IMG/VR virus record: IMGVR_UViG_2541047814_000002
DNA: 44,195 nucleotides
From: a virus
Taxonomy: Duplodnaviria > Heunggongvirae > Uroviricota > Caudoviricetes
Strand: one strand, 5' to 3'
Part shown: positions 26,248-42,826 of the stretch, in pieces
Layout: every line of letters starts with the position of its first letter
How positions within the stretch are numbered: the first letter of the stretch is position 1
Position numbers and translations under genes: made by a program
Notes under the pieces: model-generated
Seen by the model: only the letters and a program-made list of their open reading frames with translations
Databases searched by the model: none
What the model was told of the DNA's origin: nothing

Positions 26248-26278
26248 TTGCATGAGTTGCCCATCGATATGGGCAGCT

Positions 26279-27234: not shown

Positions 27235-27449
27235 TATTCACCTCTCGCAGCCTTGCGCTTATCTTCTTTAATCTTGAAATAAAGGTTTGTCAGGTACGTC
27301 AGCAGGCCAAATACCAGGCTACCCAGCACACCTATTGCCGCCCACTGTGAGGGCGTGACTTTATCGAGCAACTGTAAAAACCAGTACCCGGCACTACCTG
27401 CTGAGGTACCATAGGCGACACCCGTTGTTAACTTATCCATGGATTTCAT
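27234..27449 (-). CDS. S: pinholin (S21-type) with dual start motif
   Basis: 71 aa, MKSMDK...[18 protein letters not shown]...[35 protein letters not shown] resembles phage 21 S pinholin. Confidence 0.85.
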
Positions 27450-27574
27450 AACCCCACCTCGCAGACAAAGCGGGTGTAAATTAAGGGGATACTACGTATC
27501 GCAATAAAGGCAGAAACGTAACAGATTCGGAGTCAGTGAATAACTCAGGTATTGGGTTATCAGCTAATATCGAG

Positions 27575-27612
27575 ACTCAAAAAATGGAAAAACCCGCTCG
27601 ACGGCGGGTTTA
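27575..27612 (-). terminator. candidate intrinsic terminator upstream of S
   Basis: Minus-strand hairpin AACCCGC..GCGGGTT followed by TTTTTCCATTTTTTGA. Confidence 0.4.
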
Positions 27613-28037
27613 AGCTGTGTGACGAAGTAACCACTCTTAACAGCATAACCAATTTTTTACGTACGTAAACTACTAAATGATATTTGTGAGAATGCCACCG
27701 AGTGTTCAAAACACCACCACAAATGCATAAGAAAACTTCAACAAATAACCAGTTAATAATTTCCAATGTTATTTTTAGTTTGTTTAAATTAAGCTAAAGA
27801 ATTATAGAGCACTTATAAATAAGTGCCATTAATATAAATTAGCTAATAGATTTATTTTTGTTCAGACAAGAGCCATGAATAGGATTAGATAGAAAAGGTT
27901 CAGATAAAAATAGAGATCTACTTCACAAATTAAATGAGAAACTAAAACTTACATCTTGAAATAATCACATTGATTAGATGAATATTTATCGCGCAGTGAC
28001 ATCATTTTTTAATAATAGTTCAAAAAAAGGGCGTACA

Positions 28038-29120
28038 ATGAAAAAATTAACAGTGGCAATTTCTGCTGTAGCTGCATCAGTACTGATGGCGATGTCTGCT
28101 CAGGCAGCTGAAATTTATAATAAAGACAGTAACAAGCTGGATCTATACGGGAAAGTTAATGCCAAGCACTACTTCTCCTCTAATGATGCAGATGATGGTG
28201 ATACTACTTATGCCCGTCTTGGCTTCAAAGGTGAAACCCAAATCAACGATCAACTGACTGGTTTCGGTCAGTGGGAATATGAATTCAAAGGCAACCGTGC
28301 TGAATCTCAAGGTTCTTCCAAAGACAAAACCCGTCTTGCATTTGCAGGCCTGAAATTTGGTGATTACGGCTCAATCGATTACGGCCGTAACTACGGTGTA
28401 GCATACGACATCGGTGCGTGGACTGACGTTCTGCCAGAATTCGGTGGTGATACCTGGACCCAAACAGATGTGTTCATGACTGGTCGCACTACTGGTGTTG
28501 CAACTTATCGTAACAACGACTTCTTTGGTCTGGTCGATGGCCTGAACTTTGCTGCTCAGTATCAGGGTAAAAATGACCGCACTGACGTAACTGAAGCCAA
28601 TGGTGATGGTTTCGGTTTCTCCACTACTTATGAGTATGAAGGATTCGGCGTGGGTGCAACCTATGCTAAATCAGATCGCACTGACGGTCAGGTCGCCTAT
28701 GGTAAGAGCAAATTCAATGCCTCCGGCAAAAATGCGGAAGTATGGGCTGCAGGCCTGAAATATGATGCGAACAATATCTATCTGGCTACCACATATTCTG
28801 AAACTCAGAATATGACCGTTTTTGGTAATAACCATATTGCAAACAAAGCACAAAACTTTGAAGCAGTAGCACAATATCAGTTTGACTTCGGTCTGCGTCC
28901 ATCTGTTGCTTACCTTCAGTCAAAAGGTAAAGACCTTGGTGTTCATGGTGACCGAGACTTAGTCAAGTATGTCGATGTCGGTGCTACTTACTACTTTAAT
29001 AAAAACATGTCCACTTTTGTTGATTACAAAATCAACTTAATTGACGATAGTAAGTTTACCAAAACAGCTGGTATTGATACCGACGACATCGTCGCTGTAG
29101 GTCTGGTTTATCAGTTCTAA
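28038..29120 (+). CDS. nmpC: outer membrane porin, NmpC/Lc (OmpC-family) type
   Basis: 360 aa with signal peptide [38 protein letters not shown] start and C-terminal VAVGLVYQF; located between Q and S as in DLP12 and PA-2. Confidence 0.9.
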
Positions 29121-29137
29121 TCTGACTTACGAAAAAG

Positions 29138-29172
29138 ATATGTTGCGGGAGGCTTTGCCTCCGCAACATATA
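29138..29172 (-). terminator. candidate late-region terminator (tR'-like) between Q and porin
   Basis: Long perfect hairpin ATATGTTGCGGAGG-CAAAG-CCTCCCGCAACATAT followed on the minus strand by TCTTTTTCG. Confidence 0.35.
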
Positions 29173-29257
29173 AGTGGAGCCCTCAAGCCACTTCCTTTAG
29201 AAGCACTACCTTGCTTCTTACTATATAAACCTTCTGTTATATATTACCCTTTATTTT

Positions 29258-29282
29258 GGGGGCGTTTCCACGCCCCATTTTT
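29258..29282 (+). terminator. candidate intrinsic terminator downstream of porin gene
   Basis: Plus-strand hairpin GGGGCGT-TTCC-ACGCCCC followed by ATTTTTAA. Confidence 0.4.
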
Positions 29283-29308
29283 AATAACTTTTAGTAAACA
29301 ATTGCATA

Positions 29309-29692
29309 TCAATTAGAATTATTAGCAACGATATCCATATCTAACCGGATATCTAATGCCATTAACATCCCTTCAATTATGCCCTCAGCCTTCTGTAACC
29401 TTTTCCCGATATAACCATCCGAGCAGCAATGCTTACTTGCCAGTGACATGAATGTCATACCACATACATAATAATCTACTAATAAATCGTGTAAATCGCT
29501 GTTGTTCTTTTTCAGACGGGCCATGCACCCGCAAATGATCATCGCGTCATCGTCACAACATTGCGGGCGAGATTTTACTTTTGAAGGAATTAATCCCTTA
29601 AAACCGGCGGCAATGGACGACCAGGTCACATCTTCATGATTATTAGCCGCCCACGCACCCCAACGCTCAAGAACCATCTGAATATCACGCAT
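29309..29692 (-). CDS. Q: late gene antiterminator Q (DLP12 QuuD / phage 82-type)
   Basis: 127 aa from ATG 29690..29692, [22 protein letters not shown]... with Cys-rich region; position upstream of lysis cassette. Confidence 0.8.
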
Positions 29693-29914
29693 CAACTTAC
29701 TCCACAAAAATCAGACCAGAACGCCAATTACAAGCAAAAATCAACAAAACAGTATTAGTTGATTGTTATCTCTGACTTCATACTCCTGTTCCTGTCAGGG
29801 TTTTGGCGTAATTCTTCAGTATTCGGTAATCGGTCAAAACAGAACCGAGGAAACGATATAAGCGCAGACGCCCCCAGCGGTGGCGAAGAAGTTCTGCCAT
29901 ATTAAACTCAAACA

Positions 29915-30277
29915 TCATTCATTCCCCATTTCGGTGATGGTCAGTTCCAGCCTCCCACCTTTGGTAACAGGCATCTTCACAACGCGGTAATCAACGACCT
30001 GAGCATCATCCAGCCAGAAACCTGCTTTAGTGAGTGCGTCAAAAGCGGCTTTTTGCAGATTATCCAGGTCACGGCGACGGCGATCCGGCATGTGGCACTC
30101 AATGCGGATTTTCACAGGCATAGCCAGGCCGATATCCAGCATTGCGTTTTTAATGATTCGGGCGACGTTATCGCGGTATGCCTGCCCCTCTGCGCTGACG
30201 TGCGTGCGCCCGCGATTATGGCGGTAATAGCGATTATTGCTCGGAGGCCAGGGTAATGTGATGCTGTAGGTATTCAC
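29915..30277 (-). CDS. rusA: Holliday junction resolvase RusA
   Basis: 120 aa, [35 protein letters not shown]... matches E. coli RusA. Confidence 0.9.
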
Positions 30278-30296
30278 GCCTTAATAACCCCCTCTT

Positions 30297-30491
30297 TCAG
30301 CCACATAACCTGTGTTCTCGCCATACCTTCCAGCGCGCATTCTTTTGCATATGCAGCATCGACTTGCTTGGCATGCCCTTTACCGGCAATCTTCTGTATG
30401 CGCTAAACCTAGATAGAATCCACTCTGTGCACATTGAAGCCCGCTCTATGCTTTCTTTCAGGTATTGAAGGGATTGAGATGGGCTAAGCAT
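30297..30491 (-). CDS. hypothetical small protein (64 aa), nin region
   Basis: ORF tightly packed between flanking genes (start overlaps upstream stop); no homology recognised. Confidence 0.3.
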
Positions 30492-30831
30492 TATTGGCCT
30501 CCTGCATCAGGAGAAAGACAATCATGGCGGCGCGGAGAGGTCTGGTATCAAATATTGGGCTTACGCCTTTTGCATCCACACACCATTCAGTTAACTGGTC
30601 TAAGATAGAAATCCTGTATTTCTCAATAATCGGCCATGAAGCGCTCGGATCATTGCAGTAGTCAGGCAAATGATTTAATGGCTCAAAAGTTGTATCAGCA
30701 TTTCCGTAATACCATTTGTTGGTGTTATTCCCTGATGTTTCCGGTTTACTTGCCCAAAGGCCTTTAAAAATTATGTCTCCTACCATTCTGTTAATTTCAA
30801 AATCACTTAACTGTGAATAATCCATTGTCAT
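30484..30831 (-). CDS. hypothetical nin-region protein (115 aa)
   Basis: ORF start overlaps ninE stop; occupies the ybcO-like position of DLP12; not recognised. Confidence 0.5.
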
Positions 30832-31004
30832 TTCCTCGCACGATATCTTAGCCACCGGATATCCCACAGGTGGGCTGTGTAATTGAAGGTTTTTACGTCA
30901 GATTCTTTTGGGATTAGCTTGCGTTTATTTCTGGAGCGTTTCGTTGGAAGGTATTTGCAGTTTTCGCAGATTATGTCGGTGATGCTTCGTCGCTGTCGTC
31001 TCAT
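30828..31004 (-). CDS. ninE: NinE
   Basis: [52 protein letters not shown]... matches lambda NinE. Confidence 0.8.
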
Positions 31005-31528
31005 GCAGCCCTCCTGACGCCCTGCCCGATCGCCATCAATGCCGCTTTGGATACGGTAGTAAACATCCGTCGAGGACTGATGAACGGTCGCCAAATCAGC
31101 AGCATGGAGCCTTTGCTGTTTCCCTTCTTCTCCAGCCCTGTCGATGGTTCGATAAAATTAATCCGTCCATCAGTGATAATACGAACTTCGTCAACACTCT
31201 CCAGAGCCTTGCTGAACCATCCGACAGACATATCCTCTGGCACAAGCATCACTACCGTCTGTCGCTGTTGTATACACTGCTCAGCGGCTTTTTCCACCCA
31301 CGGCCTGATATTGCTGTACGGTGGGTTATTCCAGATTGCACCGTGGCTTACCCACTCAGAATTGAGCGCGTCGTCGTCCTCAGTTAGCCAGTGAGCGCAC
31401 AGAGCATTTTTGTCGCTCGCTGCCGAATCCAGCCAGAATCCAAACTCAATATCCAGTGCATCAAAAAGCCAAAGCGGCGTTTGCCAGCAGTCCTTGTCGT
31501 GTGCTGGCGTATTTGATTTGATAGTCAT
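31001..31528 (-). CDS. phage DNA N6-adenine methyltransferase (Dam-like, orphan)
   Basis: NPPY catalytic motif (WNNPPYSN) and [13 protein letters not shown]-terminus typical of phage N6-adenine MTases; no adjacent restriction gene. Confidence 0.75.
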
Positions 31529-31965
31529 GCAGCCCGATCTCCCCATCGCGCTTTCCATTCGAGAGCCAGTCGCGCTTCGTCTGACCACTTAACGCCACGC
31601 TCTGTACCGAATGCCTGTATAAGCTCTAATAGCTCCGCAAATTCGCTTACACGCATCCTGCTGGTTGACTGGCCTATTACCACAAAGCCATTCCCGGCAA
31701 GGTTAGGAACAACATCCTGCTGCTTTAATGCTGCGGTAAACACACACTTCCAGCTTTCTGCATCCAGCCAGCGACCATGCCATTCAACCTGACGAGAGAC
31801 GTCACCTAAGCAGGCCCATAGCTTCCTGTTTTGGTCTAAGCTGCGGTTGCGTTCCTGAATGGTTACTACGATTGGTTTGGTTGGGTCTGGAAGGATTTGC
31901 TGTACTGCGTGAATAGCGTTTTGCTGATGTGCCGGAGATCGAATTTCAAAGGTTAGTTTTTTCAT
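31525..31965 (-). CDS. ninB: NinB recombination protein
   Basis: MKKLTFEIRSPAHQQNAIHAVQQILPDPTKPIVVTIQERNRSLDQNRKLWACLGDV... matches lambda NinB. Confidence 0.9.
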   Translation of the reverse strand: MKKLTFEIRSPAHQQNAIHAVQQILPDPTKPIVVTIQERNRSLDQNRKLWACLGDVSRQVEWHGRWLDAESWKCVFTAALKQQDVVPNLAGNGFVVIGQSTSRMRVSEFAELLELIQAFGTERGVKWSDEARLALEWKARWGDRAA

Positions 31966-32038
31966 GACTTCCCTCTCCCCCAAATAAAAAGGCCTGCGAT
32001 TACCTGCAGGCCTGTTATTAGCTCAGTGATGTAGATGG

Positions 32039-32329
32039 TCATCTTTTAACTCCATATACCGCCAATATCCGTTTCATCGTGGCACTCTGGCGACACTCCT
32101 TAAAAATCAGGTTCGTGCTCATCTTTCCTTCCCGTTCTTCCTTGGTAGCAAACCGGTAATACACCGTTCGCCAGACCTTACCTTCGATAACCAGAAGACC
32201 TGCCCGTGCCATTTTAGCCGCGGCCTGATTTATGCTGGTTACTGTTGCGCCTGTTAGCGCGGCAACGTCCGGCGCACAGAAGCTATTATGCGTCCCCAGG
32301 TAATGAATAATTGCCTCTTTGCCCGTCAT
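32039..32329 (-). CDS. ren: Ren (rex-exclusion escape protein)
   Basis: 96 aa, MTGKEAIIHYLGTHNSFCAPDVAALTGATVTSINQAAAKMARAGLLVIEGKVWRTVYYRF matches lambda Ren. Confidence 0.9.
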   Translation of the reverse strand: MTGKEAIIHYLGTHNSFCAPDVAALTGATVTSINQAAAKMARAGLLVIEGKVWRTVYYRFATKEEREGKMSTNLIFKECRQSATMKRILAVYGVKR

Positions 32330-33027
32330 ACACTTGCTCCTTTCAGTCCTAACTTAGCTTTAATTTCTGCGATCTTCGCCAGCGCCTGAACACGATTTAG
32401 AGGTCTGCCGCCCATGACAGGAAGTTGTTTTACTGGTTCAGGTATCGTCTCACCACGGTTAATTCGCGCTGTCATACAGGTCAGTTCATCGGCAGCCTTG
32501 CGTCGTAATTCCGCGTCAGTCAGCGCATTGGCCCGCATGTTCTGGTACAGGTTGGTAACCAGCCAGTAGTGCGCGTTCGATTTCCACGGATAAGACTCTG
32601 CATCCGGATACAGGCCTCGCTTCCGGCAATACTCGTAAACCATATCAACCAGCTCGCTGACGTTTGGCAGTCCGGCGATAACGGATGCTTCTTCCCGGCA
32701 CCATGCAACAAACTGCCCGGGTGATGGCAGAAATGGTCGATTCTGCCGACGGGCTACGCGCATTCCTGCGTTAACCTGTTCCATTGTGGTGATCCCGTTT
32801 TCCCGGAAAGCCAGAACCCACTGGCGGCGGATTTCGTTCAGTTCGTTCTGGTCACGGTTAGCCAGACTCGCCGGGAAAGTTGCCAGTAACTGGCTGAACA
32901 CACCGTTGATGATCTGCGCTACCTGCTGTACCTGCGGCTTTTCGTCGTACTGTTCCGGCATGTTGTTGGCGATCCGACGCATCTGCTCACGGTCAAAATT
33001 AACCATCTGTGCGGCGATGTTTTTCAT
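32326..33027 (-). CDS. P: replication protein P (DnaB loader)
   Basis: 233 aa, MKNIAAQMVNFDREQMRRIANNMPEQYDEKPQVQQVAQIING... matches lambda P. Confidence 0.95.
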   Translation of the reverse strand: MKNIAAQMVNFDREQMRRIANNMPEQYDEKPQVQQVAQIINGVFSQLLATFPASLANRDQNELNEIRRQWVLAFRENGITTMEQVNAGMRVARRQNRPFLPSPGQFVAWCREEASVIAGLPNVSELVDMVYEYCRKRGLYPDAESYPWKSNAHYWLVTNLYQNMRANALTDAELRRKAADELTCMTARINRGETIPEPVKQLPVMGGRPLNRVQALAKIAEIKAKLGLKGASV

Positions 33028-33923
33028 AAATCCACCCCGTAAATCCAGTCAGTGTTTGTCAGGTCGAGTTTTGGTTTGCAGGCTGTCACACCTGCCTGTT
33101 GCTTGTTACGGTTGATTTCGAGCTGGGTCCACTTGTCGCGGAGTTTGGCCGGGCTCAGCACGTTACCGGACCAGAAGTTGTCCTGGCATGCCCAGCGGAA
33201 CAGTACACACATGTCGCGATGGTTACGTCCGTCACGTTCACGCATCAGGCGGATATCGTTAGCCCACCCTGCAAAATTCGGTTTTCTGGCTGATGGCGCG
33301 ATGGTCTTCACCATGTCAAACATCCATTCTGCGGCGGTCAGGTCTTCTGCTGTCCCCCACTTGCTGCCGCTCTGAATTGCAGCATCCGGTTTCACCACAG
33401 AAAGGTCGTTTTCTGGCTGGTCAGAGGATTCGCCAGAATTCTCTGACGAATAATCTTTTCTTTTTTCTTTTGTAATAGTGTCTTTTGTGTCCCCCTGTTT
33501 TGAGGGATAGCAATCCCCCAATTTGAGGGATGTTTTATCCCTCGTTTTAGGGGATTTTCCCTCGTTTTGAGGGATACACCATTCTGAGATGTTTTTATTT
33601 GGTCCAAACATGCCGCCTTGCTGCTTGATAATATTCATTCTGACGAGTTCTAACTTGGCTTCATTGCACCGTTTGACGGGTAACTTTGTAATCTCGCTAA
33701 GTTGAGAATCGGTGATTCTGTCCATTGGTTTATTCCATCCATAGGTTTTACGCAGAATGGCAAGCAGCACTTTAAACTGTCGCTTGGTCAGATCTGCGCC
33801 TGAATAAGCCTCAAGCAGCATATTTGATAGTCTGGCGTAACCATCATCGAGATCTGCCACATTACGCTCCTGTTTGGCAAAGTTACCTCTGCAGAAGTTG
33901 AGTATTTTTGCTGTATTTGTCAT
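33024..33923 (-). CDS. O: replication initiator protein O
   Basis: 299 aa, MTNTAKILNFCRGNFAKQERNVADLDDGYARLSN... matches lambda O; contains ori iterons. Confidence 0.95.
   Translation of the reverse strand: MTNTAKILNFCRGNFAKQERNVADLDDGYARLSNMLLEAYSGADLTKRQFKVLLAILRKTYGWNKPMDRITDSQLSEITKLPVKRCNEAKLELVRMNIIKQQGGMFGPNKNISEWCIPQNEGKSPKTRDKTSLKLGDCYPSKQGDTKDTITKEKRKDYSSENSGESSDQPENDLSVVKPDAAIQSGSKWGTAEDLTAAEWMFDMVKTIAPSARKPNFAGWANDIRLMRERDGRNHRDMCVLFRWACQDNFWSGNVLSPAKLRDKWTQLEINRNKQQAGVTACKPKLDLTNTDWIYGVDL
33490..33575. repeat. ori-lambda iterons (four ~19-bp O-binding repeats) plus adjacent AT-rich region
   Basis: Repeated TCCCTCAAAACAGGGGGA-type palindromic iterons (ATCCCTCAAAACGAGGGAA etc., read on the minus strand) inside O. 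Confidence 0.8.
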
Positions 33924-33933
33924 AATGACTCCT

Positions 33934-34012
33934 GTGGATTGATCCAGTAATGACCTCAGAATTCCATCTGGATTTGTTCAGAACGCTCGGTTGCCGCCGG
34001 GCGTTTTTTATT
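33934..34012 (+). ncRNA. oop: oop antisense RNA (antisense to cII 3' end)
   Basis: Plus-strand GATTGATCCAGTAATGACCTCAGAATTCCATCTGGATTTGTTCAGAACGCTCGGTTGCCGCCGGGCGTTTTTTATT matches the remembered lambda oop RNA including its terminator. Confidence 0.7.
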
Positions 34013-34252
34013 GGTGAGTCCATCAAGCGCATACTTAAAAGCCCTGCTAATCGGACTGATGTCTGATGCCATTCCGAAAGCACACAAGACCGAAGCAATA
34101 AATCTCCAGTCCGTTCTGCTTATCTTCGATTCATGACAGCCAATCATCTTTGCCAGACCGCGCTGGGTAATAGCTGACAGATTGATAAGTAAATCTGTTT
34201 CTGCGCGATCAACGTCACGCTGTGATAGTTTGCTGTAACTTGTTCTTTCCAT
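33956..34252 (-). CDS. cII: transcriptional activator cII (lambda-like C-terminus, divergent N-terminal half)
   Basis: C-terminal ...LTNKKRPAATERSEQIQMEF identical to lambda cII tail; HTH region differs. Confidence 0.8.
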   Translation of the reverse strand: MERTSYSKLSQRDVDRAETDLLINLSAITQRGLAKMIGCHESKISRTDWRFIASVLCAFGMASDISPISRAFKYALDGLTNKKRPAATERSEQIQMEF

Positions 34253-34393
34253 TTCTTAAGATTTCCAATAGTGAATAGTTAGTTGAAAGGTATGCGTGGA
34301 AACGCATATGGCCTTAGTTGGTCAGATATCTTGGAACTCGCTTTTCAGCGACGTAGGACGAATGTCCGTTGTTACAAAGAGCGGATCCGCTTA

Positions 34394-34609
34394 TTAAGCG
34401 GCTTTGTGTTCCGGCGGGAACACGTCATCAAGACTGACTTTTGCGCCTAACTTGTTTAGGCACGCAACAAGAGCACGGCATGTTTTAAGGTCTGGGAAGC
34501 GACGACCAGATTCCCAATGTCCGATAGCTCCCTGTGTGCATCCAACTGCCTTAGCAAGTGTTGTTTGAGAGATATTCAGTGACTCTCGATATTTTCGTAG
34601 GTTGCTCAT
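34394..34609 (-). CDS. cro: Cro-type repressor (HTH, non-lambda specificity)
   Basis: 71 aa from ATG 34607..34609, MSNLRKYRESLNISQTTLAKAVGCTQGAIGHWESGRRFP... HTH; divergent from cI across operator region. Confidence 0.75.
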   Translation of the reverse strand: MSNLRKYRESLNISQTTLAKAVGCTQGAIGHWESGRRFPDLKTCRALVACLNKLGAKVSLDDVFPPEHKAA

Positions 34610-34720
34610 ATGCCCTCCATAGTAAACACGAATAAAAAAATACAATATGTACTTTGCGAATACAAGTAAAAATACACATTGTGCATGGATGGTTCCAGTA
34701 CAGAGCGTAATAATAAGGAC
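34610..34720. promoter_or_regulatory. OR operator / pR-pRM divergent promoter region
   Basis: Intergenic region between divergent cro and cI; repeated AATACA(A/C) half-sites and near-palindromes TACAATATGTAC and CACATTGTG. Confidence 0.5.
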
Positions 34721-35380
34721 ATGAAAATGAAATGGTATGAACTGGCTAGATCCAGAATGAAAGAGCTCGGCATAACTCAAGAGAAGTTAGCCGAAGAGCT
34801 AGGTATGACGCAGGGTGGGATTGGACACTGGTTGCGCGGATCTCGTCATCCATCTCTTAGTGATATTGGTGTGGTGTTTAAATACCTTGGTATTGATAAC
34901 ATATCATTCAACCACGACGGGACATTTTCACCTGTTGGCGAATACTCATCGGCCCCAGTTAAAAAACAATATGAGTACCCTGTTTTTTCTCATGTTCAGG
35001 CTGGGATGTTCTCTCCAGAACTCAGAACCTTTACCAAAGGCGATGCGGAGAGATTGGTAAGCACAACCAAAAAAGCCAGTGACTCTGCATTCTGGCTTGA
35101 GGTTGAAGGTAACTCAATGACCGCACCAACAGGTTCCAAACCCAGCTTTCCTGACGGGATGTTAATTCTGGTTGACCCTGAGCAAGCTGTTGAGCCCGGC
35201 GATTTCTGCATAGCCAGACTTGGTGGTGATGAATTTACCTTCAAGAAACTGATCAGGGATAGCGGTCAGGTGTTTCTACAGCCACTAAACCCACAATACC
35301 CAATGATCCCATGCAATGAGAGTTGTTCCGTTGTGGGGAAAGTTATCGCCAGCCAATGGCCTGAAGAGACGTTTGGGTGA
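34721..35380 (+). CDS. cI: cI repressor with lambda-type C-terminal (LexA-like autocleavage) domain and non-lambda N-terminal DNA-binding domain
   Basis: C-terminal ~140 aa ([27 protein letters not shown]...[22 protein letters not shown]) match lambda cI; N-terminal HTH is different. Confidence 0.9.
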
Positions 35381-35419
35381 TGAAACCACTTTTATCTACA
35401 ATTTACAGGGCGGTAAACA

Positions 35420-35977
35420 TTGGCAAAAATAGATGATTATCAGCCAAGCCAAGTAGAAGTTGATAAAGTACTTTATTGTAAAAAAATAGTTAACTTTTCT
35501 GGCGTTAAATGGAAACAGAAACCAAGTCGCTCTGATATGTGGCTACAAGCCCATATCATCCCCTTGGATGAGGATTGTATACCTATACAAGGGCTAAAGT
35601 TTGAACTGAAATGGAAACCAGATCAGGATTCAGAACCTGATGACCCGATTTCTTACCCTAAAATAAATATTATTGCTTTCTATCATAACAAGAGGGTTTT
35701 CGCGGTAGATACCTATCACTTTGACAAACACACGAATAGTTACAAGGTCGATCATCCGAAGTACCAAGATATCATTTACGGTGCTCACTACCATGTATAC
35801 TATGAAGAAGCTGGATACTATAGTGATAGAATAGCGTTTCCAATCGAAGATGACATAAACCCAGATGACCTGGTAGGGTATTGGAATTACTTCTGTAAAC
35901 ATCTGAACATAACTTACTCTGGGAGAATACCTTTACCGCTTGAAGATGAGTCGGGGCAAATGGGGTTTGGAATATGA
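35420..35977 (+). CDS. hypothetical protein (185 aa), first gene of an operon in the rexA position
   Basis: ORF 39 nt downstream of cI on the same strand; TTG start in the ORF track (start uncertain); acidic, Tyr/His-rich; no recognisable homology; AT-rich coding sequence. Confidence 0.65.
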   Translation: MAKIDDYQPSQVEVDKVLYCKKIVNFSGVKWKQKPSRSDMWLQAHIIPLDEDCIPIQGLKFELKWKPDQDSEPDDPISYPKINIIAFYHNKRVFAVDTYHFDKHTNSYKVDHPKYQDIIYGAHYHVYYEEAGYYSDRIAFPIEDDINPDDLVGYWNYFCKHLNITYSGRIPLPLEDESGQMGFGI

Positions 35978-36726
35978 TGTGCTCAACAGTGATCTCACAA
36001 CTAGGTTTCGAATGCCATCCAATAGGCAAGACCTTGAGAATTATCAGTCCATTCACTTACTGTGATGATGGAGAGCATGTCGGTGCCTTTATCCGTGAAG
36101 TCAATGGTAGGTATTTAGTTAGTGACAGATGCGATGCCTTAATGAATATGGAGGCAAGAGGGATCTCGCTTACCAAAAAACGACTTGATGAGATACGACA
36201 ATTACTGCTTAAAGAAGGCGCAGAACTCAATGCTCGAGGAGAAATCATTGCTTGGGCAACAGAAAAGGATGTCGGTGCGATTACATCGAACATAATTAGA
36301 GCTGGTATACTCGCATCAACTTTGTCGTTAGACTGGTATCAGCCAGTTCAAGCTGAAAAGTTTGAAAGTATGGTTATTGATTATCTATATCACACAGAGC
36401 TTAGAGACGCACTTTCTCTTCGTGAAAACGTATATGGCTTGAGTGGACATCAAATTACCGTCCCTGTAACAATAAAAACCGACATACCTAAATACGTTTT
36501 TACATCAAGCGTGAAACACGGAGGAAGCTGGAATAGTGCTTACTCATTGCTTGGGAAACTAATTGATCTTAAAGCTTCAAGTGAGGAGTATAACAACAGA
36601 TTTGTTGTTATAGACAGCGAAGCAATTGGTGATCAAATGCAACAACTCTCCTTACTCTTCCATGAATCAAGCCAAGTTCTACCATTCTCCAAAAGAGAGA
36701 CTTGGGTTAAGAGACTTGCAGCATAA
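35974..36726 (+). CDS. hypothetical protein (250 aa), second gene of an operon in the rexB position
   Basis: ATG overlaps upstream stop (ATGA); followed by intrinsic terminator; no recognisable homology. Confidence 0.7.
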   Translation: MMCSTVISQLGFECHPIGKTLRIISPFTYCDDGEHVGAFIREVNGRYLVSDRCDALMNMEARGISLTKKRLDEIRQLLLKEGAELNARGEIIAWATEKDVGAITSNIIRAGILASTLSLDWYQPVQAEKFESMVIDYLYHTELRDALSLRENVYGLSGHQITVPVTIKTDIPKYVFTSSVKHGGSWNSAYSLLGKLIDLKASSEEYNNRFVVIDSEAIGDQMQQLSLLFHESSQVLPFSKRETWVKRLAA

Positions 36727-36729
36727 TAC

Positions 36730-36758
36730 AACCCGGCCTCAGCGCCGGGTTTTCTTTG
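36730..36758 (+). terminator. intrinsic terminator ending the cI-immunity operon
   Basis: Hairpin CCCGGC-CTCAGC-GCCGGG followed by TTTTCTTTG immediately after stop at 36726. Confidence 0.6.
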
Positions 36759-36929
36759 CCTCACGTTCGCCCACCTAAAAACACATAACCAATTATATTT
36801 ATTGAAAAATAAATAGATGCAACCCACTAAACCACGCAATTCTGATCTCTCCTTACATCGCCGAGGCAATACATCCACGCTAAAAAACAACACTATTAAA
36901 TACAAAGCGTTATAAAAAACCACGCCAAC

Positions 36930-36980
36930 TTACAACAAATTGTATTGATCTTGTAAAGTACATATCGTACTATTTAACCG
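36930..36980 (+). promoter_or_regulatory. candidate pL promoter with OL operators
   Basis: GTACATATCGTAC (36958..36970) closely resembles the OR half-palindrome; candidate -35 TTGATC and -10 TACTAT with 17-nt spacer. Confidence 0.4.
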
Positions 36981-37019
36981 TCAGCAGGACGCTGGAAGCC
37001 AAATGGAACAGACTGGCAG

Positions 37020-37064
37020 GCTCTTTAAACAACGTCGACTCTCGACTACGTGGCTGAAAAGCCA
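37020..37064 (+). promoter_or_regulatory. candidate nutL (boxA GCTCTTTAAAC, boxB hairpin GGCTGAAAAGCC)
   Basis: boxA-like sequence resembling rrn/lambda boxA, followed ~20 nt later by a short hairpin with GAAAA loop, ~100 nt upstream of N. Confidence 0.4.
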
Positions 37065-37162
37065 GATCACCCAACCACATAAGCTGTGGGATGCAATGCC
37101 GAAGCAACCGTCTCAGGAGGAGCTTCGAGATTGCATCGCCAAAGTTTATTCGGGAGGAATCC

Positions 37163-37435
37163 ATGTCCAGAAAAACAGAATTTAAAGGCACCGCAGCTTC
37201 TCGCCGTAGAGCTCGTCGCGCAAATCTGCAAAGTCAGGAGGCGATCAGCTCCGACAAGCTACACAGGCCAACCCCTTCACGAGTGGTCTTGCAATGCAAG
37301 CTCAAACCAGCAATGAGAGCAGAAGTGATAACTCTGACAACGTTGACCAGAAAATATGAAGGTTCAACTTGTCTTCCGAACGTAGCTCTTTACGCGGCAG
37401 GCTACCGGAAATCAAAACAACTGACGGCGAGATGA
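37163..37435 (+). CDS. N: antitermination protein N (P22-like C-terminus, Arg-rich N-terminal motif)
   Basis: ATG preceded by GGGAGG; Arg-rich motif TAASRRRARRANLQ; C-terminal LPNVALYAAGYRKSKQLTAR resembles P22 gene 24/N. Confidence 0.75.
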   Translation: MSRKTEFKGTAASRRRARRANLQSQEAISSDKLHRPTPSRVVLQCKLKPAMRAEVITLTTLTRKYEGSTCLPNVALYAAGYRKSKQLTAR

Positions 37436-37451
37436 TAAATTCATTTGCTAA

Positions 37452-38033
37452 TTACTTGTTTTTGCCATGCTTATCCTGAGCGATAAGTTCATCCATAAGG
37501 CTGTCTGCCTTCCCGGCAAACCTAATGTAGCACTCATGTCTATAGCTTTCAGGGATAACGAAACGGTCGGTATCAGGATATCCAACAGCAGGAGGCCTTC
37601 GAACGAGGAGTCCTTTTTTGAGCAATGAAATTGATTCATGAGCGCCCTTTTCCGTTTGTAGCTGGTTATTAGCGGCTACAGCGAATGCCAAATACGCTCT
37701 TTCTCCAAGAGTTAACGAATCAAACAAATCTTGCACATATTTTTCTTCTTTAGATTTGCGCTTCTGAGCAGCGAATACCTCAATTCTTTCAGTCACAGCG
37801 TGATAAGCGGAATTAACAACGCCGTTAAGCACATAGCTAACGCAAAACAACAGGATGTAATACATCCAGTAATGAGGAAGGATTTCTGGATTATGCAGGT
37901 TTATCCATTCTTTTACGCTTACCGGCATAACAATAATCAATATGATCAGGATGATTAGCATATGAATCAACTGTTTAAGTGTCATTCCTTGCAGGAAAAA
38001 ATGCATTAGTTCCTGCCACCATGAGTTGTTCAT
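37452..38033 (-). CDS. sieB: superinfection exclusion protein SieB
   Basis: 193 aa membrane protein MNNSWWQELMHFFLQGMTLKQLIHMLIILIILIIVMPV... matching lambda SieB. Confidence 0.85.
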   Translation of the reverse strand: MNNSWWQELMHFFLQGMTLKQLIHMLIILIILIIVMPVSVKEWINLHNPEILPHYWMYYILLFCVSYVLNGVVNSAYHAVTERIEVFAAQKRKSKEEKYVQDLFDSLTLGERAYLAFAVAANNQLQTEKGAHESISLLKKGLLVRRPPAVGYPDTDRFVIPESYRHECYIRFAGKADSLMDELIAQDKHGKNK

Positions 38034-38246
38034 CGGCGTTTCTCTTTTGCTCTCTGTAGGGGTGAATAGAGTTTATCCGATTTCTCGTTGTAGGGGTACA
38101 CGAGAACCACCGAGCCTGATGTGGTTAAAAGACAGGCACAATCTTTACTACCGCAATCCACTATTTAAGGTGATATATGGAAGAAGAATTTGAAGAGTTC
38201 GAAGAGCATCCTCAAGATGTGATGGAACAATACCAGGACTATCCGT

Positions 38247-38447
38247 ATGACTACGACTATTGATACAAATCAATGGTGTGGACAATTCAAACGATGCAAT
38301 GGATGCAAGCTGCAATCGGAATGCATGGTTAAGCCTGAAGAAATGTTTCCTGTAATGGAAGATGGGAAATATGTCGATAAATGGGCAATACGAACGACGG
38401 CAATGATTGCCAGAGAACTTGGTAAACAGAACAACAAAGCTGCCTGA
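38247..38447 (+). CDS. ral: restriction alleviation protein Ral
   Basis: 66 aa MTTTID.NQWCGQFKRCNGCKLQSECMVKPEEMFPVMEDGKYVDKWAIRTTAMIARELGKQNNKAA matches lambda Ral. Confidence 0.85.
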   Translation: MTTTIDTNQWCGQFKRCNGCKLQSECMVKPEEMFPVMEDGKYVDKWAIRTTAMIARELGKQNNKAA

Positions 38448-38629
38448 TAGTGGCCTTTATTTTTGGCATAAATAACAGAATAAACACTGCACTGTGTATT
38501 CATTCCAACGAGTGAATACACGGAGCAATGTCGCTCGTAACTAAACAGGAGCCGACTTGTTCTGATTATTGGAAATCTTCTTTGCCCTCCAGTGTGAGGG
38601 CGATTTTTTATCTATGAGGATATGAATAG

Positions 38630-38998
38630 ATGTCAAACATCAAAAAATACATCATTGATTACGACTGGAAAGCATCAATAGAAATTGAAATTGACCATGA
38701 CGTAATGACAGAGGAAAAACTTCACCAGATTAATAATTTCTGGTCAGACTCTGAATACCGACTCAATAAACACGGCTCTGTATTAAATGCTGTATTAATC
38801 ATGCTGGCGCAACATGCTCTGCTTATAGCAATTTCAAGCGACTTAAATGCATATGGTGTTGTGTGTGAGTTCGACTGGAATGATGGAAATGGTCAGGAAG
38901 GATGGCCTCCAATGGATGGTAGTGAAGGAATAAGAATTACCGATATCGATACATCAGGAATATTTGATTCAGATGATATGACTATCAAGGCCGCCTGA
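38630..38998 (+). CDS. ea10: Ea10 protein
   Basis: 122 aa, position and sequence as lambda Ea10. Confidence 0.8.
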   Translation: MSNIKKYIIDYDWKASIEIEIDHDVMTEEKLHQINNFWSDSEYRLNKHGSVLNAVLIMLAQHALLIAISSDLNAYGVVCEFDWNDGNGQEGWPPMDGSEGIRITDIDTSGIFDSDDMTIKAA

Positions 38999-39070
38999 GC
39001 GCGGCGTTACCGCATACCAATTACGCTTCACTCGAGGCGTTTTTCGTTATGTATAAATAAGGAGCACACC

Positions 39071-39235
39071 ATGCAATATGCCATTGCAGGGTGGCCTGTT
39101 GCTGGCTGCCCTTCCGAATCTTTACTTGAACGAATCACCCGTAAATTACGTGACGGATGGAAACGCCTTATCGACATACTTAATCAGCCAGGAGTCCCAA
39201 AAAATGGATCAAACAATTATGGCTATCCAGACTAA
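39071..39235 (+). CDS. cIII: cIII (FtsH inhibitor)
   Basis: 54 aa [53 protein letters not shown] matches lambda cIII (below ORF-track size cutoff, found by reading the sequence). Confidence 0.85.
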   Translation: MQYAIAGWPVAGCPSESLLERITRKLRDGWKRLIDILNQPGVPKNGSNNYGYPD

Positions 39236-39347
39236 ATTCACTATCGCCACTTTTATTGGCGATGAAAAGATGTTTCGTGAGGCCGTCGACGCTTATAAAA
39301 AATGGATATTAATACTGAAACTGAGATCAAGCAAAAGCATTCACTAA
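39204..39347 (+). CDS. kil: Kil (FtsZ inhibitor)
   Basis: 47 aa [47 protein letters not shown], overlapping cIII 3' end as in lambda. Confidence 0.75.
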
Positions 39348-39422
39348 CCCCCTTTCCTGTTTTCCTAATCAGCCTGGCATTTCGCGGGCGATATTTTCAC
39401 AGCCATTTTCAGGAGTTCAGCC

Positions 39423-39719
39423 ATGAACGCTTATTACATTCAGGATCGTCTTGAGGCTCAGAGCTGGGCGCGTCACTACCAGCAGATCGCCCGTGAAGAG
39501 AAAGAGGCAGAACTGGCAGACGACATGGAAAAAGGCCTGCCCCAGCACCTGTTTGAATCGCTATGCATCGATCATTTACAACGCCACGGGGCCAGCAAAA
39601 AAGCCATTACCCGTGCGTTTGATGACGATGTTGAGTTTCAGGAGCGCATAGCAGAACACATCCGGTACATAGTTGAAACCATTGCTCACCATCAGGCTGA
39701 TATTGATTCAGAGGTATAA
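39423..39719 (+). CDS. gam: Gam (RecBCD inhibitor), short form
   Basis: 98 aa [59 protein letters not shown] matches lambda GamS. Confidence 0.9.
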
Positions 39720-39724
39720 AACGG

Positions 39725-40510
39725 ATGAGTACAGCACTCGCAACGCTGGCAGGGAAGCTGGCTGAACGTGTCGGCATGGATTCTGTCGACCCACAGGAAC
39801 TGATCACCACTCTTCGCCAGACGGCATTTAAAGGTGATGCCAGCGATGCGCAGTTCATCGCATTGTTGATCGTCGCCAACCAGTACGGCCTTAATCCGTG
39901 GACGAAAGAAATTTACGCCTTCCCTGATAAGCAGAACGGCATTGTTCCGGTGGTGGGCGTTGATGGCTGGTCCCGCATCATCAATGAAAACCAGCAGTTT
40001 GATGGTATGGACTTTGAGCAGGACAATGAATCATGTACATGCCGGATTTACCGCAAAGACCGCAATCATCCGATCTGCGTTACCGAGTGGATGGATGAAT
40101 GCCGCCGCGAACCATTCAAAACCCGCGAAGGCAGAGAAATCACGGGGCCGTGGCAGTCGCATCCCAAACGGATGTTACGGCATAAAGCCATGATTCAGTG
40201 TGCCCGTCTGGCCTTCGGATTTGCTGGTATCTATGACAAGGATGAAGCCGAGCGCATTGTCGAAAATACCGCATACACTGCAGAACGTCAGCCGGAACGC
40301 GACATCACTCCGGTTAACGATGAAACCATGCAGGAGATTAACACTCTGCTGATTGCCCTGGACAAAACATGGGATGACGACTTATTGCCGCTCTGTTCCC
40401 AGATATTTCGCCGCGACATTCGCGCATCGTCAGAACTGACACAGGCCGAAGCAGTGAAAGCTCTTGGATTCCTGAAACAGAAAGCCACTGAGCAGAAGGT
40501 GGCAGCATGA
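39725..40510 (+). CDS. bet: Bet (Red-beta single-strand annealing protein)
   Basis: 261 aa [59 protein letters not shown]... matches lambda Bet. Confidence 0.95.
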
Positions 40511-41187
40511 CACCGGACATTATCCTGCAGCGTACCGGGATCGACGTGAGAGCTGTCGAACAGGGGGATGATGCATGGCACAAATTACGGCTCGGCGTCA
40601 TCACCGCTTCAGAAGTTCACAACGTGATAGCAAAGCCCCGCTCAGGAAAGAAGTGGCCTGACATGAAAATGTCCTACTTCCACACCCTGCTGGCTGAGGT
40701 TTGCACCGGTGTGGCTCCGGAAGTTAATGCTAAGGCGCTGGCGTGGGGAAAACAGTACGAGAACGACGCCAGAACCCTGTTTGAATTCACTTCCGGCGTG
40801 AATGTTACTGAATCCCCGATCATCTATCGCGACGAAAGTATGCGCACCGCCTGCTCTCCCGATGGTTTATGCAGTGACGGCAATGGCCTTGAGCTGAAAT
40901 GCCCGTTTACCTCCCGGGATTTCATGAAGTTCCGGCTCGGTGGTTTCGAGGCCATAAAGTCGGCTTACATGGCCCAGGTGCAGTACAGCATGTGGGTGAC
41001 ACGAAAAGATGCCTGGTACTTTGCCAACTATGACCCACGAATGAAGCGTGAAGGCCTGCATTATGTCGTGGTTGAGCGGGATGAAAAGTACATGGCGAGT
41101 TTTGACGAGATGGTGCCGGAGTTCATCGAAAAAATGGACGAAGCACTGGCTGAAATTGGTTTTGTATTTGGAGAGCAATGGCGATGA
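40507..41187 (+). CDS. exo: Exo (lambda exonuclease, Red-alpha)
   Basis: 226 aa [65 protein letters not shown]... matches lambda Exo. Confidence 0.95.
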
Positions 41188-41366
41188 CCCATCCTCACGA
41201 TAATATCCGGGTAGGCGCGATCACTTTCGTCTACTCCGTTACAAAGCGAGGCTGGGTATTTCACGGTCTTTCTGTTATCCGAAATCCGCTGAAAGCCCAG
41301 CGGCTGGCTGAGGAGATAAATAATAAACGGGGGGCGGTATGCACAAAGCATCTCCTGTTGAGTTAA
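41178..41366 (+). CDS. small early-left ORF (lambda orf60a-like)
   Basis: 62-aa ORF directly after exo, same position as lambda orf60a. Confidence 0.55.
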
Positions 41367-41530
41367 GAACGAGTATTGATTTGGCACATAGCCTTGCTCA
41401 AATTGGAGTCAGGTTTGTGCCAATACCAGCAGAAACAGACGAAGAATTTCATACGTTAGCCACATCCCTTTCACAAAAGCTGGAAATGATGGTGGCGAAA
41501 GCAGAAGCAGATGAGAGAGACCAGGTATGA
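41339..41530 (+). CDS. small early-left ORF (lambda orf63-like)
   Basis: 63-aa ORF in same operon; position as lambda orf63. Confidence 0.55.
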   Translation: MHKASPVELRTSIDLAHSLAQIGVRFVPIPAETDEEFHTLATSLSQKLEMMVAKAEADERDQV

Positions 41531-41916
41531 CAACCACTGAATGCATTTTTCTGGCAGCGGGCTTCATATTCTGTGTGCTTATGCTTGCCGACATGGGGCT
41601 TGTTCAGTGACACCTCAGCAAGAAAACGCCCTTCGCAGCATTGCCCGTCAGGCTAATTCTGAAATCAAAAAAGTCAGACAGCAGTTTCCAAAAACGTCAA
41701 TGACATTTGCCGTAGCGTACTGAAGAAGCACCGCGAAACGGTAACGCTGAAGGGATTCACACCGACTCATTTAAGCCTGGCAATCGGCATGTTAAACGGC
41801 GTCTTTAAGGAACGATGAACATGAAAAGCAAAATTATCAGGGAGCTACAGGCTCCTTTTTTATTGTTCGCATTCACCCTCAAGCGTATTAACCAACAGTT
41901 CAGGGATTAATGAAAG

Positions 41917-42138
41917 ATGGCAGACATCATTGATTCAGCATCAGAAATAGAAGAATTACAGCGCAACACAGCAATAAAAATGCGCCGCCTGAACTACCTG
42001 GCTGTATCTGCCACTCATTGTTGTGAGTGTGGCGATCCGATAGATGAACGAAGACGCCTGGCCGTTCAGGGTTGTCGGACTTGCGCCAGTTGCCAGCAAG
42101 ATCTGGAGCTTATCCGCAAACAAAGGGGGATTAAGTGA
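41917..42138 (+). CDS. TraR/DksA-family C4 zinc-finger protein (lambda Orf73-like)
   Basis: 73 aa with CxxC...CxxC (CCECGDPIDERRRLAVQGCRTCASC) typical of TraR-like RNA polymerase-binding proteins. Confidence 0.7.
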   Translation: MADIIDSASEIEELQRNTAIKMRRLNYLAVSATHCCECGDPIDERRRLAVQGCRTCASCQQDLELIRKQRGIK

Positions 42139-42687: not shown

Positions 42688-42826
42688 AAAAATTGATAAA
42701 TTCAATACTGCATTTCTCAGCATTAAATTTATCTCTATGACCAGTCAAGAGATGTACCTGCCATGAGCTTAATATCATGTCAGATATATCGGTCACAAAC
42801 TCCCTCAGCAGCTAAGAGGAGGACAA

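Follow-up and report, generated by a model that had tools for sequence, protein, structure and literature searches.

The immunity switch analysed here is of the VT2-Sakai type, which controls the Stx2 prophages of O157:H7. A VT2-Sa CI repressor with a lambda-like C-terminal and a non-lambda N-terminal part was already described by Fattah et al. in 2000, as related in a later paper (PMC10742460). In that paper, Sedhom & Solomon (2023) also attribute cross-immunity between lambda and VT2-Sa to Fattah et al., and they measured weak binding of lambda CI to VT2-Sa operators (3.7–6.4 uM). For cII, the C-terminal tail is described as an FtsH degradation tag (PMC5869508, citing Kobiler 2002). A literature search for prior accounts of general shuffling between N-terminal (NTD) and C-terminal domains (CTD) of lambdoid repressors returned nothing specific.

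Layout and immunity type of the switch region

Taken as a whole, the explanation in which we place high confidence is that the window (the entire stretch of DNA analysed, 44,195 nucleotides) represents a lambda-like prophage in reverse orientation, with an immunity switch of the VT2-Sakai type. The specificity unit would be small, comprising cro and OR with codons 1–83 of cI (34385–34969), together with OL (about 36899–36971); Cro and the cI NTD, with a common recognition helix, would read operators of the form ARTACA-N3-YGT. In the cI hinge, this unit would be joined to a lambda-family module (lambda residues 101–236), which carries the Ala-Gly cleavage site and the Ser/Lys autoprotease as well as the interfaces for dimer and tetramer formation. 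Given such a module, repression, cooperativity and RecA-triggered induction are expected to be lambda-like, on other operators. cII would stand apart, as a 21/HK022-type activator connected to a lambda-type oop-O-P module at a point 8 nt past the oop terminator, and would for that reason end in lambda's FtsH degradation tag. The switch region contains the following features:

33956–34252, minus strand: cII gene
34394–34609, minus strand: cro gene (71 aa; HTH_3, all-helical, VT2-Sakai kind)
34639–34711: OR, between the divergent cro and cI, with 15-bp ARTACA-N3-YGT sites at 34639–34653, 34671–34685 and 34697–34711
34721–35380, plus strand: cI gene
36730–36851, plus strand: lambda-homologous island, 90% identical to lambda 35826–35708
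36730–36751: t_imm-like terminator hairpin (terminator-like site), closing the cI operon
36899–36971: OL, upstream of N, with ARTACA-N3-YGT sites at 36899–36913, 36932–36946 (reverse strand) and 36957–36971
37163–37435: N gene, downstream of OL

Nearly identical phages to the window are PhiR63_2, ev017 and ev207. More than 60 phage records match the immunity region at 96.6–100% nucleotide identity, and the VT2-Sakai immunity type occurs in 776 of the 5426 complete genomes of E. coli. Membership of this group is evident from the cI NTD (81 of 81 residues identical), from Cro (100%) and from operator positions that are those annotated in VT2-Sakai (AP000422); the OL/N region (36729–37435) is 93% identical to VT2-Sakai. 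Measured against the imm-lambda group, the cI NTD reaches 20.5% identity, Cro does not align, and the best operator match in the window carries at least 6 of 17 mismatches from the TATCACCGC-type site. The first-pass annotation had held that Cro and the operators are unlike those of lambda, and the comparison agrees: by alignment, no similarity between Cro and lambda Cro was detectable, and the window contains no lambda-like operators.

All six OR and OL sites fit ARTACA-N3-YGT. The motif occurs nine times in the window (0.94 expected), with seven of the nine matches inside OR or OL; OR and OL of lambda contain no copy of it, also when one mismatch is allowed. Cro is identical throughout VT2-Sakai-type phages and 69% identical to phage L Cro, and its recognition helix, TQGAIGHW, matches TQGGIGHW of the cI NTD. 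The centres of OR1 and OR2 are 32 bp apart, compared with 24 bp in lambda, so that pairwise cooperativity of the lambda style is not guaranteed. A consensus promoter scan called none of PR, PRM and PL; from visual inspection and the parallel with the VT2-Sakai annotation, we propose TTGTAT-17-TATTTT on the minus strand as candidate PR, a putative PRM –10 box at about 34709–34714, and TTGATC-17-TACTAT as candidate PL.

Two phages with lambda cI and cro, mEp234 and HK97, match the window at 33916–34384 and at 34970–35376, and not between, which delimits the specificity core. Hetero-immunity towards lambda is a prediction from sequence. The operator sequences give no explanation for the reported lambda/VT2-Sa cross-immunity.

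The junction inside cI

The two parts of cI, as delimited by comparison with lambda, are:

34721–34969, plus strand: 5′ part, HTH_3 DNA-binding domain of VT2-Sakai type, not lambda-like
34970–35380, plus strand: 3′ part, hinge/cleavage-site region and S24 C-terminal domain (residues 84–219), lambda-family module

A second in-frame ATG of cI lies at 34727.

That cI combines a lambda-like CTD with a different NTD, separated by a sharp breakpoint, had been noticed at first pass, and alignment with lambda confirmed it. Residues 84–219 are identical to lambda cI 102–237 (101–236 in mature numbering) at 135 of 136 positions (99.3%), whereas residues 1–83 agree at 17 of 83 (20.5%). At the DNA level, 34970–35381 aligns without gaps to lambda 37637–37226 at 93.4% identity, and upstream of 34970 the cI DNA has no alignable match to lambda. 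The maximum chi-square breakpoint falls at aligned nucleotide 249/250, at codon 84 (Tyr, corresponding to Tyr101 of mature lambda cI), with a value of 231, compared with a maximum of 24.6 among 2000 permutations, which is a sharp step rather than uniform divergence.

This junction falls at a structural boundary, in the NTD–CTD hinge, where the self-cleaving fragment 101–236 begins (PDB 8gmu, 2ho0). The alignment to 8gmu_A covers exactly residues 84–219, with further matches to 2ho0 and 1f39, and Pfam places HTH_3 at residues 11–58 (1.9e-10) and Peptidase_S24 in the C-terminal domain (1.1e-28). The S24 domain keeps the Ala-Gly cleavage site (VQAG) and a Ser/Lys dyad, with GNSMT and FKKL retained, and the predicted cleavage bond is Ala94–Gly95. 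Since this site and the rest of the domain are retained bar one substitution relative to lambda (W to L, at window residue 112), lambda-like RecA-dependent induction of this cI may fairly be inferred.

A contrast of this kind could also arise in place, from one ancestral cI whose NTD diverged fast under immunity selection while purifying selection froze the CTD. Both NTDs are HTH_3 domains with Gln33, Gln44 and the helix-turn-helix glycines in common, and the CTD is indeed under extreme purifying selection (27 of 412 nt differ from lambda, of which 26 are synonymous and one non-synonymous; dS 0.37, dN/dS 0.008). Divergence in place predicts, however, equal synonymous divergence on both sides, and synonymous sites are saturated before codon 84 and about 80% conserved after it. 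Conserved residues are encoded by identical codons in 3 of 15 cases in the NTD versus 103 of 129 in the CTD, a difference with p = 6.5e-6. Third codon positions agree at 34% versus 82%. The step is accordingly one of recombination and not of fast local divergence. Moreover, CTDs that are nearly the same occur in several genera on NTDs of three unrelated classes. We regard divergence without recombination as very improbable and rejected it on the synonymous-codon test.

Just as hard to credit is a recent origin of the lambda-like pieces, whether in an assembly chimera or in a cross with lambda itself that left a hybrid of the imm434 or imm21 kind, in nature or in the laboratory. O, P and ren at 97.3% identity to lambda and a cII tail matching at 62 of 63 nt would suit such an origin, as would the almost identical cII of classical lambda imm21 hybrids. 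Against it, the cI CTD is 27 nt removed from lambda and closest to other VT2-Sakai-type phages (98.5–100%), and the same arrangement recurs in the more than 60 independent phage records and the 776 complete E. coli genomes; the 27 CTD differences and this wide distribution led us to discard it. A CTD dS of 0.37, set against a pS of 0.078 in O, points to a shared cI half that is old, with no recent exchange with lambda. The lambda-like halves of cI and cII seen at first pass are real, but the phage is of the known VT2-Sakai type and no new hybrid with lambda.

With recombination as the preferred reading, the cI hinge junction is an old, recurrent reassortment point. Across Enterobacterales, DNA-binding domains of at least three classes are connected to near-identical CTDs at the same linker junction. 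Six of ten multi-member CTD clusters (≥97% identity) mix at least two NTD classes, and 48 cross-class NTD pairs share CTDs at ≥95% identity. Within E. coli phages, CTD alleles track NTD type (96.8–100% among Sakai-type phages, 92–95% to lambda-immune phages). The NTD is 100% identical to that of VT2-Sakai, and its nearest relatives outside its own type are 48–55% identical (Salmonella g341c/BIS08P22/L c2). The VT2-Sakai switch exemplifies a common domain swap, and its mosaic cI is real, ordinary and already known, the VT2-Sa description dating from 2000. It offers a clean textbook case of modular phage evolution, with a within-gene junction exactly at a functional domain edge; its discovery value is small, the arrangement having been in print for VT2-Sa since 2000 and the cII boundary being the one long known from imm21.

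A single conserved module for induction and oligomerisation stands behind two common E. coli immunity types, and knowledge of lambda cI cleavage and cooperativity is, through this common module, probably transferable to VT2-Sakai-type phages. By inclusion-exclusion, a minimum of about 185 among the 5426 complete E. coli genomes contain both lambda-type and Sakai-type repressors. In O157:H7 strain Z1769, an example that was checked, a CP-933H-like cryptic prophage carries a lambda-type cI, and a Sakai-type CTD copy is found at another place in the chromosome. That the two repressors form mixed dimers or tetramers in vivo is a speculative and rather unlikely proposition. If they did, how stable the Stx2 prophage is, or at what threshold it is induced, would be coupled to the repressor of a cryptic prophage, and mixed oligomers might account for the lambda/VT2-Sa 'cross-immunity' that has been reported. 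It would be worth looking for cross-talk between repressors in polylysogens.

The cII tail, oop and the replication module

At the other end of the switch region, cII and its surroundings are subdivided as follows:

33898–33926: pO-like promoter of oop, promoter-like site in the O leader
33934–34010, plus strand: oop antisense RNA, homology-inferred, overlapping the cII tail
33956–34018, minus strand: cII tail (last 20 codons and stop), lambda allele, FtsH degradation tag by homology
33980–34007: oop terminator hairpin followed by a T-run, inside the cII 3′ end
34019–34252, minus strand: cII body (residues 1–78), phage 21/HK022/933W type

cII (Pfam Phage_CII, PF05269; 7e-34, residues 1–92) is 43% identical to lambda cII overall, and its last 20 residues, LTNKKRPAATERSEQIQMEF, are those of lambda (20 of 20 aa, 62 of 63 nt), including the C-terminal 16-residue tag. 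The body is 82–96% identical in amino acids to the cII proteins of HK022, 933W, 21, VT2-Sakai and mEp234. From 34018, lambda DNA homology runs unbroken through O, P and ren to 31525 (97.3%). The oop region is 97% identical to lambda, and an equivalent oop position is annotated in HK633 and P22; an Rfam search of 33000–38500 for oop, nut and other RNA families gave matches at chance level only, oop having no Rfam model.

The first reading of a lambda tail on cII, joined at a sharp recombination-type junction, stands: the junction is found 8 nt further on than the oop 3′ end, shortly ahead of the C-terminal FtsH tag, and it is the classical lambda/phage 21 homology boundary. The cII junction has no part in immunity specificity and is unlinked to immunity type, since the phage 21/HK022/933W-type cII body is also found with lambda cI/cro, in mEp234 and HK97. 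At the start of cII, in the –35 region of PRE, the activator site TTGCTGTAACTTGT (plus strand, 34230–34243) contains the repeat TTGC-N6-TTGT, a 7 of 8 match to the lambda repeat, and fits ttgynnnnnnttgy as annotated in phage 21. This cII type probably still reads TTGC-N6-TTGY.

We lean towards the view that the oop RNA and the boundary of the replication module, and not protein-domain logic, determined where the cII junction lies, so that the tail would simply follow the oop-O-P module that a phage has. Lambda homology begins 8 nt beyond the oop 3′ end and continues into O, P and ren, and HK633 has a further junction inside oop. Moreover, among the phages compared, the tail allele goes with the downstream module and not with the cII body: VT2-Sakai, HK97 and mEp234 combine an HK022-type tail, ITKKKSPAATEDFKQIDMQF, with P22/HK022-type replication genes. 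The correlation is not strict, however, as 933W carries a variant of the HK022-type tail, ITKKKSPVAAGDSKQIDMQF, before lambda-like O and P, and all cII tail alleles are still related, so that protein function constrains the tails too. A boundary set by oop is also compatible with one set by protein domains, residue 78 being the end of the ordered cII core and the start of the tag region.

Comparison with described phages

The VT2-Sakai/VT2-Sa (Sp5) Stx2 phage (AP000422; Miyamoto 1999, Makino 1999, Fattah et al. 2000) is closest in its switch, with cI 99.5% identical (217 of 218 aa over its annotated length), Cro at 100%, all six operators in common and N/OL at 93% nucleotide identity. It differs in its HK022-type cII tail, its HK022/P22-type O and P and its cargo after cI; in the window, these places are taken by a lambda-type tail with oop, O and P, and by a DUF6978/DUF1828 pair.

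Lambda itself has the same gene order. It agrees with the window in cI from the hinge through the CTD (99.3% aa), in the stretch of cII tail, oop, O, P and ren (97% nt) and in the t_imm island. Its cI NTD, Cro fold family, operators, N/nutL and cII body are, in contrast, unrelated or distantly related, and its rexAB is replaced in the window. In phage 21 and the lambda imm21 hybrid, this cII body likewise leads into a lambda-like tail followed by oop, O and P. Phage 21 is colinear with the window over 32542–34284 at 96.3%, and its head and tail genes are 99.6% identical, but its cI, cro and operators are its own and its cII tail, LTKKKRPVCKTERSEQIQMEF, is slightly different.

The wild lambda-immunity phages (HK97, mEp234, HK106 and ev099; the set of Degnan et al. 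2007) have the CTD family in common with the window (92–95% nt) and carry variable cargo in the rex slot, with 21/HK022-type cII in mEp234 and HK97; unlike the window, they keep the lambda NTD, Cro and operators. Finally, the repressors of Salmonella g341c/BIS08P22 have the same architecture and length (217 aa) and are relatives from end to end (NTD 48%, CTD 80%), but their recognition helix, TKGAVSHW, differs, so that their immunity is presumably another one.

The cI junction and the age of its two halves

Relative to the lambda map, the lambda-like genome in the window is reversed, and the region of interest holds O, listed with the cII tail below, and three further genes:

33956-34252, minus strand: cII
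34394-34609, minus strand: cro
34721-35380, plus strand: cI

Blastn against lambda aligned 31525-34018 with lambda 41084-38591 (97.3% identity), 34970-35381 with lambda 37637-37226 (93.4% identity, 27 mismatches, no gaps) and 36730-36851 with lambda 35826-35708 (90% identity), and the intervals 34019-34969 and 35382-36729 were not alignable to lambda by this search. The first-pass annotation had described cI and cII as lambda-type C-terminal parts joined to non-lambda N-terminal halves, and both patterns were recovered: residues 84-219 of cI match lambda cI at 135 of 136 positions (the sole substitution being W to L at window residue 112), whereas residues 1-83 match at 17 of 83, and cII, at 43% identity with lambda overall, is identical to it over the last 20 residues. 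Both junctions are abrupt switches in pairwise nucleotide alignments with lambda. For cI, a maximum chi-square scan of the codon-guided alignment placed the switch at aligned nt 249/250 (chi-square 231, against a maximum of 24.6 over 2000 permutations), so divergence is not uniform; the mosaic observation is real and statistically unambiguous.

The cI switch falls at codon 84 (Tyr), equivalent to Tyr101 of lambda in mature numbering. In lambda cI, a hinge that bears the Ala111-Gly112 cleavage site links the N-terminal domain (NTD; residues 1-92) to the C-terminal domain (CTD; 132-236), and the shared block begins at lambda residue 101, ten residues ahead of the cleavage site. Since PDB chain 8gmu_A (136 residues) aligns with exactly residues 84-219 of the window's cI, and 2ho0/2hnf are entered as 'cI101-229', the natural junction coincides with the N-terminal edge of the structurally studied self-cleaving fragment. 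All that RecA-dependent cleavage, dimerisation and cooperativity would require lies on the lambda-like side.

Had the NTD instead diverged in place over the same period as the rest of cI, residues left unchanged should mostly have kept their codon. However, the codon is the same at only 3 of 15 such residues N-terminally, compared with 103 of 129 C-terminally (Fisher p = 6.5e-6), and third-position identity was 34% versus 82%. These figures rule out fast local divergence of the NTD, and argue that the two halves of cI differ in age and hence were joined by recombination. A recent exchange with lambda itself can likewise be ruled out as the source: the shared part carries 26 synonymous changes and 1 non-synonymous change relative to lambda (pS 0.29, dS 0.37, dN/dS 0.008), against a pS of only 0.078 for O, and the window's CTD allele is closest to those of other phages of the type of VT2-Sakai, a Stx2 phage (96.8-100% nucleotide identity), with the CTDs of lambda-immunity phages (lambda, HK97, mEp234, HK106, ev099 and others) all at 92-95%. 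The window is therefore not the lambda-derived hybrid that had been claimed.

The cII tail and the oop boundary

The cII body (residues 1-78) is of the phage 21/HK022/933W/VT2-Sakai type (82-96% amino-acid identity), and bodies of the phage 21/HK022 type accompany several kinds of immunity, among them that of lambda itself (mEp234 and HK97). In an alignment of nine phages, the segment formed by the cII tail and the antisense RNA oop had two main alleles: the lambda-type tail LTNKKRPAATERSEQIQMEF occurs in the window, in lambda and, nearly, in the Salmonella phage BIS08P22, and the HK022-type tail ITKKKSPAATEDFKQIDMQF in VT2-Sakai, HK022, HK97 and mEp234, 933W having a closely similar form, ITKKKSPVAAGDSKQIDMQF. 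The neighbouring features are:

33024-33923, minus strand: O, 99% amino-acid identity with lambda O
33898-33926, plus strand: pO-like promoter (promoter-like site)
about 33934-34010, plus strand: predicted oop antisense RNA (pO-like promoter plus terminator)
33980-34007 plus T-run, plus strand: strong terminator-like site

An oop RNA is annotated at the equivalent place in the HK633 and P22 records, and homology with lambda sets in 8 nt past the 3' terminus of the window's oop. For most of the compared phages, the allele of the tail tracks the downstream replication module and not the cII body, the exception being 933W, whose HK022-type variant tail precedes lambda-like O and P. Recombination at domain boundaries, as originally proposed, thus stands for cI and also fits cII, but the cII junction is better explained as the boundary between oop and the replication module. 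Over the whole of cII and O the window runs colinear with native phage 21 (96.3%), and cII of the lambda imm21 hybrid is nearly the same; what looked like a 'mosaic cII' is therefore the right-hand edge of lambda/21 non-homology, a classical boundary. The tail does, even so, have functional meaning. Within the beginning of cII, at 34230-34243, is a predicted CII target, TTGCTGTAACTTGT, and the phage 21 CII site is annotated as ttgynnnnnnttgy; the activator target appears conserved, and so no new specificity follows from cII having a 'non-lambda DNA-binding half'.

The specificity core and its operators

Two phages with the cI and cro of lambda, mEp234 and HK97, align with the window over 33916-34384 (cII and the cro-cII spacer) and 34970-35376, but not between, and the unit defining the immunity type is thus only 34385-34969 (cro, the operator region OR and the cI NTD) together with OL. 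A common recognition helix in Cro and the cI NTD (TQGAIGHW versus TQGGIGHW; 35% identity, E = 9e-13) is what two proteins that read one set of operators should have. The window's cro and operators are unlike those of lambda: Cro gave no match in alignment with lambda Cro, no lambda-type operator was found in the window, and the motif ARTACA-N3-YGT was not found in lambda OR and OL with one mismatch allowed. In the window this motif has nine matches (0.94 expected), seven of them in OR or OL. Six sites that fit it coincide with annotated VT2-Sakai operators; they and the putative promoters are:

34639, 34671, 34697: predicted OR sites (motif fit and VT2-Sakai operator annotation)
36899, about 36935-36946 (reverse strand), 36957: predicted OL sites (motif fit and VT2-Sakai annotation)
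minus strand, overlapping the 34639 site: putative PR, TTGTAT-17-TATTTT
-10 at about 34709-34714: putative PRM
overlapping the 36957 site: putative PL, TTGATC-17-TACTAT

PRM would start near the ATG at 34721, giving a leaderless message as in lambda, with the middle OR site at about -43. From centre to centre, the sites lie 32 and 26 bp apart in OR (34639-34711) and 25 and 33 bp apart in OL (36899-36971), unlike those of lambda (24 and 23 bp); relative to the promoter-proximal site, the order of the two spacings is reversed between OR and OL. A half-site-like sequence, AATACAAGTAAAAAT, is present at 34659-34673, between the first two OR sites. Among the contacts of lambda cI known from established structural work, Gln33 and Gln44 are kept in the window, and changes affect Ser45, Ala49, Asn52, Asn55 and the N-terminal arm. 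With the contact residues mostly changed, the operator specificity of the window's cI is expected to differ from lambda's, and hetero-immunity towards lambda is a prediction from sequence.

Spread of the hinge junction, genome setting and known systems

With the C-terminal module as query, 293 proteins in a large collection had E-values of 1e-40 or better. The best 120 of these, together with lambda and the window, gave 114 full-length sequences that were split at the junction, and their N-terminal parts formed three large classes ('SRLGNYE' type, 44; Sakai/g341c type, 40; lambda type, 26) and two small ones. Six of ten multi-member CTD clusters (at least 97% identity) contained two or three NTD classes, 48 cross-class pairs had CTDs at least 95% identical, and C-terminal identity inside one NTD class falls below 60%. 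The cI hinge is thus a point of recurrent reassortment, and this holds for E. coli, Salmonella, Providencia and the Citrobacter/Klebsiella/Enterobacter group.

Across 5426 complete E. coli genomes, the module occurs at the DNA level at 1435 places in 1211 genomes, the Sakai-type core at 802 places in 776 and the lambda-type core at 636 places in 620; because 802 and 636 together come close to 1435, these cores account for essentially all module copies. Inclusion-exclusion puts the genomes that carry both immunity types, with near-identical CTDs, at no fewer than about 185 of the 5426. In E. coli O157:H7 Z1769 (NZ_CP062780), a lambda-type cI (234/237 residues identical with lambda; within 24576-26002 of the retrieved stretch) sits with lambda-type Cro and lambda cII in a degraded prophage adjoining tRNA-Thr and proA, its C-terminal module 3-4 residues off the window's and VT2-Sakai's. 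A second CTD copy on this chromosome, at 2.04 Mb and 98.5% identical with the window's, is taken to be Sakai-type, judged from its CTD allele. Cross-talk between co-resident repressors with a common oligomerisation and cleavage module is a testable idea.

Window 19500-44195 is 100% identical with Escherichia phage PhiR63_2 and 99.4-99.8% with ev017 and ev207, and the 1.9 kb around cII-cro-cI are 100% identical in ev207, ev017, PhiR57_1 and PhiR63_2. Head and tail genes are 99.6% identical with phage 21. The genome as a whole is mosaic (1-24400 versus 24400-44195), its head genes being 66-69% identical to lambda and 99.6% to phage 21, its tail genes 95-96% and its early left and replication regions 97% identical with lambda. 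The segment 36729-37435, including N, has 93% nucleotide identity with VT2-Sakai. Since lambda homology is back only from 38054, beyond the SieB-family gene, the non-lambda stretch extends from N to cII and encloses two small islands that resemble lambda: the cI CTD and t_imm, the terminator closing the cI operon. Further features are:

9815-12224: IS21-family element, 2410 bp, with the direct repeat GTCAGC (6 bp) on both flanks
9908-11407: IstA-like ORF of this element
11404-12159: IstB of this element (Pfam 9.5e-62)
35420-36726, plus strand: two overlapping ORFs of 185 aa (weak DUF6978 match) and 250 aa (DUF1828)
37163-37435, plus strand: N of the 933W/H-19B/VT2-Sakai type, not lambda N
37452-38033, minus strand: SieB-family superinfection-exclusion gene, next after N

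The IS21-family element splits a lambda-H-like tape-measure gene. Phage 21, ev017 and PhiR63_2 lack the element, and the window thus resembles a prophage copy in which a tail gene has been disrupted. The ORF pair at 35420-36726, probably co-transcribed with cI in the lysogen, occupies the exact place of lambda rexA-rexB, from the cI stop to the conserved t_imm island, and matches a PADLOC candidate defence pair (PDC-M24A, E 4.8e-4; PDC-M24B, E 4.7e-10) as well as PHROGs 2017 and 1960, of unknown function. In related phages this slot holds other cargo: ev099 has an NYN protein there, mEp234 has HicA/HicB/HicC, and HK97 has gp48/gp49.

As relayed in PMC10742460, Fattah et al. 2000 (Genes Genet Syst 75:223) described the CI proteins of VT2-Sa (VT2-Sakai) and lambda as highly homologous C-terminally, and the two phages as cross-immune, which was tentatively put down to a few common recognition-helix residues. 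Binding of lambda CI to VT2-Sa operators is weak, with sites assayed one at a time: the apparent KD is 3.7-6.4 uM, versus 0.2-0.35 uM on its own OR1 and OL1 and 3.07 uM on OR3 (Sedhom & Solomon 2023, PMC10742460). A 2022 survey (PMC8951638) grouped lambda CI with CI of the VT2-Sakai type in a single clade, the two being 61% identical overall. Window 33912-35378 is 96.6% identical with VT2-Sakai, the Morioka V526 Stx1/Stx2 phages and many other O157:H7 Stx phages, and the six operators and the same cI, cro and cII are annotated in VT2-Sakai; the immunity arrangement is a published, widespread type.
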